Position numbers and translations under genes: made by a program. Below are positions 18,388 to 36,816 of a stretch of DNA of 44,126 nucleotides, in pieces (position 1 is the stretch's first letter; every line of letters starts with the position of its first letter). A model generated the notes under the pieces. The model was not told the origin of the DNA and did no database searches. It worked only from the letters and a program-made list of their open reading frames with translations. Origin of the DNA: Candidatus Saccharibacteria bacterium RIFCSPHIGHO2_12_FULL_49_19 (GTDB lineage Bacteria > Patescibacteriota > Saccharimonadia > Saccharimonadales > UBA10212); NCBI GenBank assembly GCA_001788565.1, contig MGCX01000043.1:1-44126 (forward strand), given 5' to 3'.

Positions 18388-20676
18388 CTATTTTTTCGGC
18401 TTGGCCCAACGCCTTTGTGTCGGAGGATTCTCTAGAAGCTTGGTTGCGACCTTTTGGGATATCTTCTTGGGGTTCTCATCTTTGGGTATACGGACATTGT
18501 GCTTACCATCGCTTACATACGGACCGTATGGGCCGTTGAGAATCTTTATTTTGCCGAAGTCAGCAATTACCCTTTCCTTTTGGGCTTTTTTCTTCTGAGC
18601 GATTAACTGACGGGCTTGAGCTTCCGTTATCTTGAAGGGGTCATTATCTTTAATGCTGACAAACAGCTTTCCAACCTGTACATAGGGCCCAAAGCGTCCG
18701 ATATTGGCGGTTATCAGCTCGCCATCAGCTGCCTTGCCTACCTGCCGGGGTAGGCTAAACATCGGCATCGCCTGCCCCAGAGTAACATCTTCCAGTGAGA
18801 CTCCTTCTGGCATTGGTGCGAACCGGGGGGCGGCCGACTTATCATCCTTGTCCTTGGCGCTTTCCCCCATTTGAAGCACCGGTCCATAACGACCAAAGCG
18901 GGCGATGATGGGCAGGCCGGTTTTATTATCTTTACCAAGGGTGCGGGCTTGTGAAACCTCAGCTCTGGTAGCCTTCTCGGACTTGGACATTAACGGATGG
19001 AATTGCCTATAGAATTTGTTGAGCATCGCTACCCAAGCAAGTTTACCGGAGGCAATATCATCCAGTTCGTCCTCGGCCTTGGCGGTAAAGTTATAGTCTA
19101 CGATATCAGCGAAGTACTTTACCAAAAAGTCGGTGACGATCTCTGCCAGAGTGGTCGGTATCAGCTTATTATTGTCGGCGCCAACAGTCACATCGTTCTT
19201 ATTTTCAGTGATTTTACCAGCCCGCAAAATAAGTTCACTAACTTGTCGTACTTCGCCTTCGATATCTTTCTTCTCGACGTACTCACGATCCTGGATAGTA
19301 CCTATGGTCGGCGCATAAGTGCTGGGCCGGCCGATACCTAACTCCTCAAGCTTTTTAACCAAGCTTGGTTCGCTATAACGAGCTGGCGGTCGGCTAAAAC
19401 CTTCAGCGGCGCTTATTTGCACCGGTTTGAGGGACTGGCCTTCTTTTAACTCTGGCAGTATGCGATCATCTTTGCCGCCACCATAGATTTTTAAATAGCC
19501 ATCGAATTCGAGGGTTTCGCCAGTGGCTATAAATTCCTCTTTCTTACTACTGATATCGATAGCGACTTCTGTCCGCTGTATCTGGGCCGATGCCATCTGG
19601 CTGGCAACTGCCCGTCTCCAGATAAGCTCGTATAACTTTACTTGTCGCGGGTCACTTCCGGCTCCGAGCTTGTTAAGATGTGTAGGACGAATGGCTTCGT
19701 GGGCTTCTTGTGCCGTTTTAGATTTTGTTTGATACTGACGGCTCTTCAGATACTTTTCGCCTAGATTCTTGATGATATAGTCCTTGGCTGCTCCGATGGC
19801 CAGTGGGGACAGATTGGTGCTGTCGGTACGCATATAGGTAATGTGCCCGGCTTCGTATAATCTTTGGGCTAAGATCATGGTCTGGCGAACCGAGTAGCCC
19901 AAGCGTCGTCCGGCCTCCTGCTGGAGCGTACTGGTAGTAAATGGTGGTGCTGGTGATCGGCTGCCCGGTTTTTGCTGGATATCAGAGACCGTGAAGCGGG
20001 CGTTCTTTACATCACTCAGCCACTTTTTGGCTGTATCTGCATTGGCGATCTTTTTGGATAGCTCCGCCGGGAATTCCTTCTTGGCGTCAAAGATGGCGGA
20101 GACTTTGAACTCGCGCTCGGCCTTGAAGGACTTGATCTCACGCTCCCGCTCTACAATTAGCCGAACCGCTACACTTTGGACCCTCCCAGCGCTCAAACCG
20201 GTGCGGACTTTACGCCACAGGATGGGGCTAAGCTCGTAGCCAACCAATCTATCAAGAACGCGGCGGGCCTGCTGGGCTTCAACCAGCTTCATATCAATGG
20301 ATCTGGGATGGGCAACCGCTTCATTAATAGCCGGCTTGGTAATTTCATGAAATACAATCCGCTTGGTGCTAGATGGCTTAACTCCTATAGCGATACAAAC
20401 GTGCCAAGCTATCGCCTCGCCCTCTCGGTCACCGTCGCTAGCCAGCCAGACTTGAGCACCTTTAGCGGCAGTTTTGAGAGCTTTAATAATTTTTTGCTTA
20501 TCTTCGGTTATCTCGTAGGTCGGTTTGAAGTGGTTTTTGATATCAACGCCTAGGTCTTTTTTAGGTAGATCACGGACATGTCCGTAGCTGCTCTCTACCC
20601 GAAAGTCAGCTCCTAAGAAGCCGGCGATGGTCTTCGCCTTAGCCGGACTCTCCACAATGACGAGATTTTTAGGCAT
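18388..20676 (-). CDS. topA: DNA topoisomerase I
   Basis: Toprim LVIVESPAKAKTI, DGDREGE and active-site ITYMRTDS. C-terminal Cys-less GRFGPYV/GPYGPYV repeats. Confidence 0.95.
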   Translation of the reverse strand: MPKNLVIVESPAKAKTIAGFLGADFRVESSYGHVRDLPKKDLGVDIKNHFKPTYEITEDKQKIIKALKTAAKGAQVWLASDGDREGEAIAWHVCIAIGVKPSSTKRIVFHEITKPAINEAVAHPRSIDMKLVEAQQARRVLDRLVGYELSPILWRKVRTGLSAGRVQSVAVRLIVEREREIKSFKAEREFKVSAIFDAKKEFPAELSKKIANADTAKKWLSDVKNARFTVSDIQQKPGSRSPAPPFTTSTLQQEAGRRLGYSVRQTMILAQRLYEAGHITYMRTDSTNLSPLAIGAAKDYIIKNLGEKYLKSRQYQTKSKTAQEAHEAIRPTHLNKLGAGSDPRQVKLYELIWRRAVASQMASAQIQRTEVAIDISSKKEEFIATGETLEFDGYLKIYGGGKDDRILPELKEGQSLKPVQISAAEGFSRPPARYSEPSLVKKLEELGIGRPSTYAPTIGTIQDREYVEKKDIEGEVRQVSELILRAGKITENKNDVTVGADNNKLIPTTLAEIVTDFLVKYFADIVDYNFTAKAEDELDDIASGKLAWVAMLNKFYRQFHPLMSKSEKATRAEVSQARTLGKDNKTGLPIIARFGRYGPVLQMGESAKDKDDKSAAPRFAPMPEGVSLEDVTLGQAMPMFSLPRQVGKAADGELITANIGRFGPYVQVGKLFVSIKDNDPFKITEAQARQLIAQKKKAQKERVIADFGKIKILNGPYGPYVSDGKHNVRIPKDENPKKISQKVATKLLENPPTQRRWAKPKK

Positions 20677-20727: not shown

Positions 20728-21603
20728 CTATATCGCTATCCAGCGGCCGGCTCCCTGTGGCCGGACAGCGCCAGCTAGCTCTAAGTCGGTCAAGGTCGAA
20801 TACAACTCGGCCGCATCAAGCTTCGCGGTGCGAGCTATCTCATCCTGATCAGACACACCCGATAGTATCAGCTCCAAAACAGACCTCTGCAGAGTGCTGA
20901 AGCTCTTACTTTTGGCGACCGATATTTTTTTAGTTGGCTTAATACCCAGTGCCAACAGTACATCGCTAGTGTCGGTAACCGGAACAGCGCCGCTTTTTAT
21001 AAGATTATTGCAGCCCTCCGATCCGGGCTGGTTAATGTTGCCGGGAACGCTCATTACAGTCTTTCCCTGCTCTAGGGCGAACCGGGCGGTGTGCATGGTG
21101 CCGCTATTGGCAGCAGCTTCAGTTATTAACAGTACGTCTGCTAGTCCGCTAACAATCCGATTGCGGGCAATAAAATTCTCTTTATAGACCATGTCTTTAG
21201 CGGAGTACTCGCTGATAAGTGTGCCACCCTTGCTTAGTATCTGATTGGCTAGGTTGAAATGGGAGGCCGGGTATATATTGCTGAGCGCTGTTGGCAGGAC
21301 AGCGATTGTACAGCCTTCAGCTTCCAGGGCTGATTGATGGGCGATTGAGTCAACCCCTAAAGCCAAGCCGCTGATAATTACAACTCCCTGCGCAGCCAGC
21401 TCGTAGCTCAAGCGCTGACTTACAAATCGGCCATAGGCGCTATTTTTTCGGCTGCCGACAATTGCGACCTTTGGCAAAGCGAGCCAATCGACAGGTGATT
21501 TTCCCGCCCAAAAGAACTGCTTAACTGGAGGGTCGGTGTACTTTAAACTATCCGGAAATAAGGGGTCGTTAAGCGAAAGCGTGTTGACATTATTTATAAA
21601 CAT
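20728..21603 (-). CDS. dprA: DNA processing protein DprA
   Basis: VAIVGSRKNSAYG, GLALGVDSIAHQ and a C-terminal winged helix. It lies upstream of topA, a common pairing. Confidence 0.9.
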   Translation of the reverse strand: MFINNVNTLSLNDPLFPDSLKYTDPPVKQFFWAGKSPVDWLALPKVAIVGSRKNSAYGRFVSQRLSYELAAQGVVIISGLALGVDSIAHQSALEAEGCTIAVLPTALSNIYPASHFNLANQILSKGGTLISEYSAKDMVYKENFIARNRIVSGLADVLLITEAAANSGTMHTARFALEQGKTVMSVPGNINQPGSEGCNNLIKSGAVPVTDTSDVLLALGIKPTKKISVAKSKSFSTLQRSVLELILSGVSDQDEIARTAKLDAAELYSTLTDLELAGAVRPQGAGRWIAI

Positions 21604-33638: not shown

Positions 33639-33701
33639 ATTGTTTCATATCTTATACAACGCCATGATTTATTGTACAATAACTCCTGTAATCCCGCTTA
33701 T

Positions 33702-33786
33702 GGGCGAGTGGCGGAATTGGTATACGCGCACGACTCAAAATCGTGTTCCGCAAGGATTGTGGGTTCGATTCCCACCTCGCCCACCA
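33702..33786 (+). tRNA. tRNA-Leu (anticodon CAA), long variable arm, CCA encoded
   Basis: Acceptor GGGCGAG/CTCGCCC, anticodon stem CACGA/TCGTG, loop CTCAAAA, T-arm GTGGG-TTCGATT-CCCAC. Confidence 0.93.
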
Positions 33787-33823
33787 AGCTATTACAATCG
33801 GAATAATAGGTACTTTGTAGTTT

Positions 33824-35218
33824 ATGTTAAGCCATCAACAAAAAATCAATCGTGTGGCTGATCGAGTTCTCTACCTCAGTTCTGCAGGTACAAAGATACG
33901 TGTTTATCACGGAAGTACCAACACTACGCGCACACTCCGACGCAGAAGAGATGAAATTGTAGATGTTTCTGACCTAAATAGAGTACTTGAGGTCAACACC
34001 AAAAAACGAAGCGTCATTATCGAACCGAATGTGCCAATGGATAAACTCGTTTCTACGACAATAAAATATGGTCTGGTGCCCCCTGTTGTCCCGGAATTTC
34101 CGGGTATTACTGTAGGTGGTGCTGTTGCCGGCGGCTCCGCAGAATCTGCTTCGATTCAATACGGTCTCTTTCACAACCTGGCACTCTCTTATGAGATTGT
34201 TCTTGGGACCGGAGAGGTTATTAAGGCATCATCAAAAACGCACCCTGATCTTTTTTACGGTACGGGCGGCACTTGCGGGACTCTAGGTATTATTACCGCT
34301 ATTGAGCTTAATCTTGTTCCTGCCACAAAGTATGTTCGTCTTGAGTATATCGTTGTCAAAGACCGGGGTGATCTATTAAAAAAAGTAACTGCTAACTCCG
34401 GTTCAAAAGCAGATTTTGTAGATGCAATACTTTTTGAAAACGGCGGCGTTGTTGTACTGGGTTTCCGTACTGACAACCGTGATGGTATCCCTGTCCGCCG
34501 TTTTTCACGACCGTGGAGTGAGTGGTTTTACCTCCACGCGAAAAAGATGGCTGAAAGCGGCGGTGGTAGCGAAGTTGTTCCACTCCAGGTTTATTTATTT
34601 CGGTACGATCGCGGCGCTTTTTGGATGGGAGATTACGCCTTTCAAACTTATCCTTATCATATTCCAAACAACAGATTTACAAGGTTTCTATTTAATCCAT
34701 TATTGAAAACAAGAATGTTGTATAGAGGACTTCAGGAGTCCAACATTGCGCAACAATACATCATCCAGGATTGTTGCGTACCAGGCGAGCGCGCGGCAGA
34801 ATTTTTAGACTATATAGACTCTTCTTTTCAAATTTACCCGCTTTGGGTACTGCCAATAGCTCCGGAGGCGTTTTCAGATACCAATATCCGGACGAAAAGT
34901 TTTGTAATCAATGTCGGTATTTGGGGGCCTTTAGGCCTGCCTTACGAAAAGTTCGTTGAAAAGAATATTGAACTTGAAAAAGTAGTTGCTCAACTAGGCG
35001 GCTGCAAAGCCCCTTACGGGCACTTCTATGGAGATAAGAATATTTTCTGGAAAAACCTCAAAAAAGAGACTTACGAAAAATTAAGAAAGAAATACCACGC
35101 CGATAGAGCATTCCCGTCATTTTATGACAAGATACGTGTGAACGAGCGCTACACGCCGACTGTAACAAAAGGATTTTTCCGAGCTCTTAGGCCTTTTTGG
35201 CGGCTACCCTTGTCTTAA
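33824..35218 (+). CDS. FAD-binding oxidoreductase of the DHCR24/DWF1 (delta24-sterol reductase-like) family
   Basis: Collinear by eye with eukaryotic DHCR24. Matching blocks are ITVGGAVAGGSAESASIQYGLF, SYEIVLGTGEV, DLFYGTGGTCGTLGI, PATKYVRLEY, YPLWVLPI and RAFPSFYDKI. Confidence 0.8.
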   Translation: MLSHQQKINRVADRVLYLSSAGTKIRVYHGSTNTTRTLRRRRDEIVDVSDLNRVLEVNTKKRSVIIEPNVPMDKLVSTTIKYGLVPPVVPEFPGITVGGAVAGGSAESASIQYGLFHNLALSYEIVLGTGEVIKASSKTHPDLFYGTGGTCGTLGIITAIELNLVPATKYVRLEYIVVKDRGDLLKKVTANSGSKADFVDAILFENGGVVVLGFRTDNRDGIPVRRFSRPWSEWFYLHAKKMAESGGGSEVVPLQVYLFRYDRGAFWMGDYAFQTYPYHIPNNRFTRFLFNPLLKTRMLYRGLQESNIAQQYIIQDCCVPGERAAEFLDYIDSSFQIYPLWVLPIAPEAFSDTNIRTKSFVINVGIWGPLGLPYEKFVEKNIELEKVVAQLGGCKAPYGHFYGDKNIFWKNLKKETYEKLRKKYHADRAFPSFYDKIRVNERYTPTVTKGFFRALRPFWRLPLS

Positions 35219-35228
35219 CTAAACAACT

Positions 35229-35269
35229 TTCCGCGAGCATTGTGGGTTCAAGTCCCACCTTGCTCACCA
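35229..35269 (+). repeat. partial tRNA-Leu copy (variable arm, T-arm, acceptor 3' strand, ACCA); att-like direct repeat of 33746-33786
   Basis: 35 of 41 positions are identical to the 3' half of the tRNA-Leu at 33702-33786, with the T-stem GTGGG/CCCAC intact. No 5' half is present. Confidence 0.75.
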
Positions 35270-35272
35270 CTA

Positions 35273-35301
35273 TTGACAATTATCCGATACGACTGTTTAC
35301 T
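35273..35301 (+). promoter_or_regulatory. possible promoter (TTGACA-17 nt-TTTACT)
   Basis: Consensus -35 with a weak -10, immediately after the tRNA fragment and 37 nt upstream of ATG 35339. Confidence 0.35.
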
Positions 35302-35338: not shown

Positions 35339-36097
35339 ATGAGTACAACTCTTGAAGCCAGCCCAGAGGTAAAGGACAAATACGCGAAGCATGAAGCCGC
35401 CGCTGGTTTTTTAGGCCGTTTGGCTGACTCAGAGTTTGGCTCGCAGTTTAGTGAAAGAACGATATCCAACTGGGGGCAAGCTTTAAGGGTAATATTTGAA
35501 GTTGATAATATCTTTGATGGTCGGGATGATGAGGCTAAGGCGCGTGCCATAATTGCCCTGAGGTCTTTTTTTGGTTCTGGCGGCAATAGTGCTTCTGTTC
35601 AGGAAGGAGACCTCACTCCTGAAACTCTCCAGGAAGCTACGAAGCTTCGGGCAATGATATCGGATAAACAAGCCCAAAATTTTGTTAATACGGGTCTCCA
35701 GGTAATTTCAGTCAGCCAATCTATGAGATCGGTAGGATCCCCGAGAGAATTAGCTCGTCTGACCATGCTTGAAGGCCAAATGACCGCGACGATGCTGGTG
35801 CATCTCATTGAACCAGAGGATAGAGAACAGCCCGGCTGTAACGACTTTATACGTTTTTTGAGAGTAGCATCTAGGGCTGCTAACGTGGTTGACAGTATTG
35901 CCGACTTAAAGACTGACTATTCAGAGGGTGTATCAGTCGTTAAGCCGACTCTTCCTAATAGATTGATTATGCTATGGGAGTGCCTACCAGCTGTTAAAAG
36001 AAGTGTAGACACCTTGGGGGCATTGGCGGTAGTCAGAAAGATGCCTCAAGCGGCTTGGCAGGTAATCCGTGACCGAAGCAGGACCGCGGAGCAATAG
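35339..36097 (+). CDS. all-helical protein with two Asp-rich motifs, squalene/phytoene synthase-like (class 1 isoprenoid synthase fold), tentative
   Basis: RVIFEVDNIFDG and ANVVDSIADLKTDYSEG resemble the two DxxxD motifs of SQS/PSY enzymes. The track start 35240 lies inside the tRNA fragment, so ATG 35339 is preferred. Confidence 0.4.
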   Translation: MSTTLEASPEVKDKYAKHEAAAGFLGRLADSEFGSQFSERTISNWGQALRVIFEVDNIFDGRDDEAKARAIIALRSFFGSGGNSASVQEGDLTPETLQEATKLRAMISDKQAQNFVNTGLQVISVSQSMRSVGSPRELARLTMLEGQMTATMLVHLIEPEDREQPGCNDFIRFLRVASRAANVVDSIADLKTDYSEGVSVVKPTLPNRLIMLWECLPAVKRSVDTLGALAVVRKMPQAAWQVIRDRSRTAEQ

Positions 36098-36099
36098 TA

Positions 36100-36816
36100 A
36101 TGCTGCCAGAATCCATTACCACCCATATGTATTTTTGGGGTTCTCTTGTACTGCTGGGACTCTTTGCAGCCATATTCTATTACCGACCCGATCTTCGCCG
36201 TCGAATGATACGAATGGGCATCGCGGTTGGAATACTTGGAGTCTTATCTGAAGCTGTATTCTTTCAGGATTATTGGCACCCACCGCTGGTTATAAGATTT
36301 GGTAGATTTGGCGGCATTGAAGACTTCTTCTTTGGTTTTAGCTTTGGGGGTATATGCGTAGCTCTCTACGATGTCGTATTCCATAAAAGGCTCAAAAAAA
36401 AGGGCTACCCCCACTACTGGATTATTCCTCTTCTTGTTGTATCAGAGGTACTTTCAATACTAATACTCAGCCAGTACATGAATAGCATTTATGCCAGCGC
36501 GATTGGCTTTGTATTACCTGCAGCGGCGGTCATAGCTGTCCGCCGGGATTTGATTGTGGAAACTGTTTTCTCGGCAATCCTAGGAGCTTCACTGCTGATA
36601 CTAATGGAGATGATCTTGCTGCTGCTGGCGCCGAATTACTTGCGGCAGTACTTTTTGCTGTATGGAGAGGTCCCTCTCATTTTTGGCGTTGTACCGATTA
36701 CTGAGTTTCTGTGGGGAGCTGCCTTCGCTGCAATTGTTGGCCCACTTCGTGACTTTGAGTTCGGCTACGCCCCTGTCCGGATCGAGCAGAAGAAGTCAGC
36801 CAATTCTAGAAGATAA
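36100..36816 (+). CDS. lycopene cyclase domain-containing membrane protein (fused two-half type), tentative
   Basis: About 7 TM helices. Two halves each carry an h-I-E/T-D/E-F motif (GGIEDFFFG and VPITEFLWG), like the PxEE motif of CrtYc/CrtYd. It starts 2 nt after the preceding stop. Confidence 0.5.
   Translation: MLPESITTHMYFWGSLVLLGLFAAIFYYRPDLRRRMIRMGIAVGILGVLSEAVFFQDYWHPPLVIRFGRFGGIEDFFFGFSFGGICVALYDVVFHKRLKKKGYPHYWIIPLLVVSEVLSILILSQYMNSIYASAIGFVLPAAAVIAVRRDLIVETVFSAILGASLLILMEMILLLLAPNYLRQYFLLYGEVPLIFGVVPITEFLWGAAFAAIVGPLRDFEFGYAPVRIEQKKSANSRR

Follow-up and report, generated by a model that had tools for sequence, protein, structure and literature searches.

How did a single metabolic gene come to lie between an intact transfer RNA (tRNA) gene and a second copy of the 3' part of that same tRNA? 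The question is raised by contig MGCX01000043.1 of Candidatus Saccharibacteria bacterium RIFCSPHIGHO2_12_FULL_49_19, whose whole length of 44,126 nucleotides was analysed here and is referred to as the window. It is contig C43 of a genome that comprises 687,546 bases in 45 contigs (49.1% GC, 92% complete). A first-pass annotation, made from the letters of the window, had proposed that an element carrying its own tRNA-like attP site integrated at the 3' end of tRNA-Leu and left behind a gene resembling DHCR24, here called the reductase. Our results show that this gene was acquired horizontally, and the repeat that brackets it probably marks an insertion that duplicated the 3' part of tRNA-Leu(CAA), whatever the catalyst may have been. 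Where labels are needed, G numbers denote genomes (G000 being the one studied), L loci or contigs of relatives, C contigs and P homologous proteins.

Results

The 3' part of tRNA-Leu(CAA) flanks a single gene on both sides

An ungapped comparison of positions 33746-33786 and 35229-35269 confirmed that the last 41 nt of the tRNA gene recur on the same strand and in the same register, with 35 of 41 identities. The two copies are 1,483 bp apart, and the intervening DNA contains one credible gene, as had been claimed, which starts 37 nt past the tRNA and ends 10 nt before the downstream fragment:

33702-33786, forward strand: intact tRNA-Leu(CAA) gene with encoded CCA (ARAGORN; Rfam tRNA, 61.8 bits)
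33746-33786, forward strand: left repeat copy, consisting of the variable arm, T-arm, acceptor 3' strand and ACCA of the functional tRNA (35/41 identities to the right copy)
33824-35218, forward strand: cargo gene for a 464-aa flavin adenine dinucleotide (FAD)-binding oxidoreductase of the VAO/PCMH type (Pfam FAD_binding_4, 5.7e-18)
35229-35269, forward strand: right repeat copy, the displaced or duplicated 3' part of tRNA-Leu(CAA), beginning 10 nt past the reductase stop codon
35235-35265, forward strand: hairpin or imperfect 12-7-12 palindrome within the right copy (RNA fold), with outer stem GAGCA/TGCTC, inner T-stem GTGGG/CCCAC and loop TTCAAGT

Under a binomial model, about 1e-8 matches of at least 35/41 are expected by chance per genome, and the only 41-mers with at least 30 of 41 matches elsewhere in the whole genome belong to true tRNA genes. 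Among the Leu tRNAs, tRNA-Leu(CAA) is the best match of the fragment, the four others of the genome agreeing with it at 22-28 of 41 positions. In line with the first-pass annotation, the fragment preserves the T-stem (GTGGG/CCCAC) and differs in the acceptor strand (CTTGCTC versus CTCGCCC in the intact tRNA); its T-loop reads TTCAAGT instead of TTCGATT. Gapped alignment perhaps lengthens the repeat by weak extensions: some 13 nt on the upstream side, which include part of the anticodon loop and overlap the stop codon, and some 12 nt on the downstream side (CTATT-ACAAT versus CTATTGACAAT). The right copy is invariant in 12 same-species contigs (99.8-99.95% identical), in which neither copy shows a single-nucleotide polymorphism. 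The genus of G000 contains no second genome.

The intact tRNA-Leu(CAA) gene of G000 is identical to that of L216 at 85/85 positions and shares 98% identity with its counterparts in G014 and G015. We considered a reading in which the fragment carries the native T-loop (TTCAAGT, as in L159, G014, G015, G008 and G012), the intact TTCGATT version was brought in by the element and the crossover fell within an 11-nt block of identity. This reading was withdrawn, since the equally close L216 carries the intact version of the gene and since the T-arm and acceptor of the genome's own tRNA-Leu(TAA) are nearly identical.

Related genomes carry the site without the reductase

In about 17 genera of the same family and order, the locus shows a conserved order of EEP, abhydrolase, HAD, unk265, a variable slot, tRNA-Leu(CAA), sortase and PEGA genes. 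The slot measures only 20-165 nt in six genera (G014, G008, G036, G020, G034 and G009) and holds unrelated genes in others; in G000, it spans 3.03 kb and contains the reductase, the fragment, unk252 and a lycopene-cyclase-domain gene (LycCyc). The search for an empty site suggested by the first-pass annotation was successful: in G004, tRNA-Leu(CAA) is directly followed by unk252-LycCyc without a reductase, and the same arrangement is found in the metagenomic contig L159, which is closer than G004 and encodes an unk252 homologue with 54% and a LycCyc homologue with 74% identity. Moreover, the 69 nt past the fragment align with the 61 nt past the tRNA of L159, promoter and leader included. The fragment thus holds the place of the tRNA 3' end at the empty site, and what has been added is exactly the DNA between the two copies. 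Judged from these alignments, the comparison shows the segment between tRNA and fragment to be an insertion relative to the relatives. These data show that the reductase was added to a unk252-LycCyc pair that was already in place. A tandem second tRNA-Leu(CAA), whose intact presence in relatives would have made the fragment a mere relic according to the first-pass annotation, was absent from the locus in 17 relatives as well as in L159, L216 and L218.

The resident part of the slot is organised as follows:

35273-35301, forward strand: native promoter-like site of the unk252-LycCyc operon, with TTGACA (35273-35278), a 17-nt spacer and TTTACT (35296-35301)
35339-36097, forward strand: unk252, without a family match
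36100-36816, forward strand: LycCyc, a lycopene-cyclase-domain protein gene and resident accessory gene of the slot

The promoter-like site had already been noticed in the first pass, and its layout is conserved: ATTGAC, a 17-nt spacer, a T-rich hexamer and TAAAAACAAAAATG also precede the homologous operon in L159, L158, L216 and L218. A consensus scan omits it because TTTACT has no A at position 2. The A-rich leader behind it ends in AAAAACAAAAA.

Other genomes show further variation at this tRNA. A slot protein of 191-207 aa is encoded directly after tRNA-Leu(CAA) at L216:3503-4078, L218:3587-4162 and L053:7873-8496 (reverse strand); it has no Pfam match and displays the motif KVD..AE.E..MWR.YYNH.F.RL...LELEWWDIHRYP. 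A candidate relic fragment behind the 191-aa gene of L216 proved marginal (p about 0.03-0.05) and was rejected. The open reading frames (ORFs) in the slots of relatives yielded no Pfam integrase match. In G033 and G035, fragments of the tRNA-Leu(CAA) 3' part lie 50-100 nt behind that tRNA. These elements, from two other families (L052:8290-8393 in G033 and L054:8120-8309 in G035), are composed of a GC-rich hairpin, GGA(G)ACGAACAAAATC and a tRNA-like 3' part; in G035, this part includes a complete T-arm, whose stem shows a compensatory change, and might form an acceptor stem by pairing, in which case the product would be a tRNA-like RNA missed by ARAGORN. Contig breaks with overlapping ends fall inside tRNA-Leu(CAA) in G005 (end of C4 and C3:125511-125579) and G011 (C20:5-52 and C24:1-53), which would be expected of a gene at which a repeat or strain heterogeneity makes the assembly branch. 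We counted the fragments in G033/G035 and the breaks in G005/G011 as support for tRNA-Leu(CAA) being a recurrent target. In addition, the tRNA is inverted relative to its conserved flanks (sortase, unk265) in L030 (G009) and L035/L055 (G021), which suggests a local inversion at the site in these two genera.

The reductase was acquired horizontally

Homologues of the bracketed gene are named 'delta24-sterol reductase' or 'FAD-binding oxidoreductase' in their sources, which explains the DHCR24 label. Matches in Pfam, PDB and NCBIfam are restricted to the N-terminal FAD domain (DprE1, glycolate oxidase, cytokinin dehydrogenase); the C-terminus is conserved with the homologues. The gene has a GC content of 43.9%, compared with 49.6% for the ORFs of the genome (at least 200 aa, n=412), and its GC content at third codon positions (GC3) is 39.0% versus 52.3 +/- 5.8%, which places it in the 1st percentile as the fifth lowest of the 412 ORFs. 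The first-pass estimate of about 40% versus about 50% GC was therefore right in direction and overstated in size, and the compositional check recommended there gives a divided result, with a deviant GC3 and an unremarkable synonymous-codon likelihood (24th percentile).

The reductase is present in two of 49 family genomes (G000 and 48 others), the second being G015, whose homologue is 39% identical, sits at a different locus and falls in a different clade. Across the Patescibacteria, the protein family is common but patchy. In a phylogenetic tree, the window's protein clusters with the metagenomic proteins P0002-P0005 on a starred branch. Its nearest homologues, P0002 (64% identity) and P0003 (62%), are encoded on contigs with a GC content of 40%, where their surroundings are densely packed and unrelated. 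The ribosomal protein S2 on the contig of P0003 is 76% identical to that of a genome from another class of the phylum, and its similarity to S2 of G000 (E = 1.3e-42) is about as strong as phylum-wide matches. Distribution, phylogeny and GC3 thus identify the reductase as foreign. The phylogeny proposed in the first pass as a way to find a donor accordingly leads to low-GC contigs and, for P0003, to another class; it does not lead to a donor tRNA, as in the class nearest to the P0003 contig, tRNA-Leu(CAA) fits neither copy specifically and the genomes in question lack the reductase.

In 10 of 83 other genomes, a homologue of the reductase starts no more than 170 nt past a tRNA on the same strand, compared with 3 of 206 neighbouring ORFs (Fisher p = 3e-4), and the tRNAs concerned belong to at least nine different species (L066, L070, L082, L094, L095, L097, L104, L115, L129 and L136; also L117 and L143). 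No duplicated tRNA piece follows these other homologues, none of the candidates exceeding shuffled controls. In a further Saccharibacteria genome (L068:2269-2856), a lycopene-cyclase-domain gene whose product is 30% identical to that of the window lies directly upstream of a reductase homologue, which may be a sign that the two gene types are functionally linked.

The fragment forms a hairpin

A distance of 16 nt separates the 12-7-12 palindrome from the reductase stop codon. Of the six substitutions that distinguish the copies, four turn AAGGA...CGCCC into GAGCA...TGCTC, adding a 5-bp stem outside the T-stem and raising the complementarity of the arms to 10/12, compared with 6/12 in the intact tRNA. 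The folding energy of the 41-nt fragment is -17.0 kcal/mol, versus -11.2 kcal/mol for the intact tRNA 3' half, with a z-score of -2.6 for the 96-nt context of the fragment. Only 1-3% of random variants with six substitutions fold as stably, and a proportion of 1e-4 forms the outer stem. Because four of six changes build the palindrome, the substitutions do not look like plain decay; the hairpin is compatible either with a recombinase core-type site or with a selected RNA hairpin that ends the reductase transcript.

Two features upstream of the reductase bear on its expression:

33653-33680, forward strand: promoter-like site of tRNA-Leu(CAA), with TATACA, a 16-nt spacer and TACAAT (consensus scan; putative function)
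33787-33823, forward strand: 37-nt spacer between the tRNA and the reductase start, with a -10-like TACAAT at 33793-33798

The TTGTACAAT block upstream of tRNA-Leu(CAA) is also kept in L159. No terminator-like site was found in the spacer (33787-33823). TTCCCA, an 18-nt spacer and TACAAT may constitute an alternative promoter. As no terminator separates the two genes, the reductase is probably transcribed by read-through from the tRNA promoter, and thus co-transcribed with the tRNA, or else from the weak TACAAT in the spacer. The hairpin in the right copy would then stabilise the transcript at its 3' end, or mark that end, immediately ahead of the next promoter.

Similar brackets occur at other tRNA genes

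The bracket at tRNA-Leu(CAA) belongs to a lineage-wide habit. In G000, a second copy of the gene's own 3' end, usually 16-18 nt long and mostly starting at tRNA position 59, lies 35-370 nt downstream of at least nine further tRNAs: Thr(TGT), Phe, Leu(CAG), Met, Ile, Ser(GGA), Lys(CTT), Tyr and Asp. The inserts within these brackets are mostly non-coding and structured. This recurrence points to a process more general than a single decayed island. The copies belonging to Thr, Phe, Leu(CAG), Met, Ile, Ser(GGA), Tyr and Asp lie 35-190 nt past each gene, at C24:176-193, C31:748-765, C39:2259-2276, C45:619-638, C14:6850-6876, C2:2863-2880, C24:~456-473 and C25:~19940-19951. At tRNA-Lys(CTT) (C3:13799-14259, reverse strand), a 366-nt insert with a small GIY-YIG ORF is followed by a 16-17-nt copy of a tRNA-Lys 3' end, making this locus a second protein-coding bracket; more small GIY-YIG ORFs are found at C21:4910-5110 and C7:1395-1604.

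Several inserts have in common a 66-nt core (GGGTTCGGTG..CACGCGCAGAAGCTTGCTTCGAGCATG..) with a 12-pair hairpin, nine pairs of which show compensatory changes. In G000, matches to this core (R1) are located at C2:2907-2972 (reverse), C24:358-423 (forward), C31:778-843 (reverse), C39:23095-23160 (forward) and, in part, C25:17379-17416 (forward). A covariance model detected about 130 copies, including loci L180-L209 of relatives, in 32 of 41 related Saccharimonadales genomes. Among the best matches per genome (n=30), 25 lie 60-98 nt behind a same-strand tRNA, covering 15 tRNA types, and in 20 of these 25, a copy of the tRNA's last 16 nt (at least 13/16 matches, most of them perfect) follows the core; a few core copies lack the tRNA. 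The model found no core copy near tRNA-Leu(CAA) in G000. A second insert family (TGAAAAGTG, a hairpin, TTTTTCA ... GGTTAGCYCCGCGCG) is present behind Leu(CAG), Asp and Met.

Neither the trailing inserts nor the core matched Rfam 15 at E <= 1, and a paper describing 224 motifs contains no counterpart of the inserts. An origin of the 18-nt copies by reverse transcription, by analogy with a retroviral primer site and a stop at m1A58 that would explain their start at position 59, was rejected, as the genome has neither RVT_1 nor TrmI; similarly, an interpretation of core and tail as a TnpB/omega-RNA system was abandoned, as no TnpB-type domain is encoded. The trailing inserts could be either miniature mobile elements with target duplication or functional RNAs with tRNA-mimicking tails.

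Two further loci are of note in this context. At C39:23132-23893 (forward strand), 49 nt past tRNA-Gln(CTG), begins a 253-aa ORF whose GC3 (34%) is the second lowest in the genome; a core copy lies in between and overlaps the ORF start. This ORF is another candidate tRNA-adjacent acquisition. A tRNA-Arg(CCG)/tRNA-Arg(TCG) pair occurs twice on the same strand, 5.4 kb apart (C3:15625-15790 and 21115-21276), and could be another duplication or insertion bracket.

Discussion

How the reductase may have entered the tRNA gene

In the model that we favour, the genome would have received a small piece of foreign DNA, with a single FAD-oxidoreductase gene and a stretch similar to the 3' part of tRNA-Leu(CAA), by a single Campbell-type recombination event, presumably via a circular intermediate, within the 3' half of the resident tRNA-Leu(CAA) gene. 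Such an event would leave a complete tRNA on the left and a 3' copy of 41 nt, or possibly 55-65 nt, on the right, abutting the native promoter of the unk252-LycCyc operon. A site-specific recombinase would have to act in trans, an assumption favoured by the fact that none is encoded in the segment. We counted as support the geometry of the repeat, the empty sites, the foreign cargo, the recurrent target, the other brackets and the 12-7-12 palindrome, whose layout is that of a recombinase core. As a complete model, including the Campbell-type insertion and the trans-acting recombinase, this scenario is tentative and, in our view, falls slightly short of being probable.

Several findings weigh against it. 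There is no integrase in or near the bracketed segment, as the first-pass annotation had stated, its only gene being the one with the FAD_binding_4 domain. The genome encodes one Xer-like tyrosine recombinase (on C25, the sole PF00589 match) and one large serine recombinase (on C38), both elsewhere; further tyrosine recombinases are rare across 40 relatives, and none is located near tRNA-Leu(CAA). With 1.48 kb and one gene, the unit is far below the size of typical tRNA islands, and since it contains almost no non-coding DNA, decay from a larger island is disfavoured. The copies differ at six of 41 positions and share no identical block longer than 11 nt. The evidence as to which copy is native conflicts, the T-loop of L159 agreeing with the fragment and the tRNA of L216 with the intact gene. 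In L216, L218 and G023, a different 191-aa gene occupies the same slot without a clear fragment. Finally, no empty-site strain exists among the 12 same-species contigs, all of which have the insertion. Thus, the insertion and the foreign nature of its gene, as postulated in the first pass, are borne out by L159 and G004 and by distribution, phylogeny and GC3; the attP site and integrase of the element's own are not, and an integrase-bearing element as a specific claim is not supported.

The sole serine recombinase (C38:10373-10831, reverse strand), whose open frame encompasses about 507 aa, lies beside tRNA-Asn (C38:9296-9370). This locus is possibly an integrated element and a candidate source of a trans-acting recombinase.

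Alternative explanations

Instead of depending on a recombinase, the reductase may have been captured by homology: donor DNA with a tRNA-Leu(CAA) followed by the reductase, circularised or illegitimately joined at one end, could have recombined via the conserved tRNA and duplicated the part that it carried. Such a donor arrangement is plausible given the enrichment of reductase homologues behind at least nine tRNA species, and tRNA-Leu(CAA), which is 89-98% identical across the nearer genera, might serve as an anchor. The lack of an integrase and the extreme compactness of the unit agree with this idea as well. However, the copies of today share no uninterrupted identity beyond 11 bases, and their duplicated length is 41-65 nt, which is short for RecA-type recombination, and the other tRNA-adjacent reductase loci lack a duplicated tRNA piece. 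Moreover, the brackets of 16-18 nt elsewhere are too short for homologous recombination, suggesting a dedicated mechanism. On balance, we consider capture by homology unlikely.

The fragment could also predate the gene, as the 3' tail of a small tRNA-trailing element in which the reductase later landed or most of which it replaced. Trailing inserts with a 3'-end copy are indeed carried by at least nine tRNAs of G000, the covarying core family is found in 32 of 41 relatives, and the elements behind tRNA-Leu(CAA) in G033 and G035 have a tRNA-derived part that begins at the anticodon arm, as the extended repeat in the window may; in addition, the fold of the fragment, a minihelix-like hairpin, gives the impression of a functional structure. 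This explanation would nevertheless require two events in the lineage of G000, because among the closest relatives that share the operon, the fragment is absent from L159, G004 and L218 and at best marginal in L216. No scaffold or terminator of a trailing element is left, the reductase ORF ends 10 nt before the fragment with a conserved C-terminus, and the covariance model places no core near this tRNA. An older tail therefore appears to be an improbable source of the fragment. The idea that the fragment is what remains of a second, tandem tRNA-Leu(CAA) that lost its 5' half to the reductase insertion is close to refuted: it could appeal to the retained T-stem, canonical T-loop and ACCA and to the existence of tRNA pairs such as the duplicated Arg pair on C3, but none of the relatives has two such genes at the locus, the variable-arm stem of the fragment is broken and the fragment begins exactly at the end of the inserted gene.

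Comparison with known systems

An intact tRNA at one end and a same-orientation 3' fragment downstream form the signature used by Islander to recognise genomic islands, whose sizes peak at 13.6 and 39.9 kb (PMC4383910). The insertion by a Campbell-type event considered here shares this signature with islands and prophages integrated into tRNA genes by tyrosine integrases, along with a patchy cargo of foreign composition, empty sites in relatives (L159, G004 and six genera) and the reuse of the same tRNA. It differs in that the unit lacks an integrase gene and resides in an order with almost no integrases, that it comprises 1.48 kb and one gene instead of the typical 10-40 kb, and that its copies are only 85% identical, with the displaced fragment now forming a hairpin or palindrome.

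There are also possible parallels to integron cassettes, which consist of a single ORF with almost no flanking DNA and a hairpin-forming imperfect palindrome immediately 3' of it, have no promoter of their own and use an upstream one (here possibly that of the tRNA), and depend on a recombinase, if there is one in our case, that acts in trans; moreover, different genes fill the same slot in relatives. In contrast to cassettes, the insertion point lies within a tRNA gene, and the 3' site is derived from a tRNA and is apparently not an attC site with R and L boxes. No integron integrase of the IntI type, attI site or cassette array was found in the genome, and the next genes have their own conserved promoter. 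Lastly, the variable slot between tRNA-Leu(CAA) and unk265, with the tRNA as a possible anchor, is reminiscent of tRNA-adjacent hot spots at which accessory genes are exchanged by homologous or illegitimate recombination. Replacement at a hot spot alone, however, duplicates no part of a tRNA, whereas the locus in the window has a 41-nt duplicate at the exact edge of the gene.

Implications for gene acquisition in Saccharibacteria

One could go further and imagine that the Saccharimonadales possess a general, integrase-independent way of placing DNA at tRNA 3' ends that duplicates the last 16-18 nt or more, in which the core RNA of about 66 nt would be part of the machinery, acting perhaps in a guide-like or external-guide-like manner with a tail that specifies the tRNA. 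Cargo-bearing products of this process would be the insertions of the reductase behind tRNA-Leu(CAA) and of the GIY-YIG gene behind tRNA-Lys(CTT). We regard this proposal as speculative and quite unlikely to hold in full.

Saccharibacteria and other members of the Candidate Phyla Radiation (CPR) have tiny genomes with very few recognisable mobile-element genes and yet show clear gene exchange. The locus described here resolves to the base pair the entry of a single metabolic gene, without an integrase of its own, into the 3' half of a tRNA gene, with a low-GC donor as its source and the closest traceable relative in another CPR class. Together with the brackets at no fewer than nine other tRNAs and the RNA-like core, which occurs with its tRNA-matching tail across most of the order, it suggests that tRNA 3' ends are the main gateway for the gain of DNA in this lineage, through a process that has not yet been described. 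The underlying mechanism, if found, would explain gene flux in the CPR and could provide a natural system for targeting tRNA genes.

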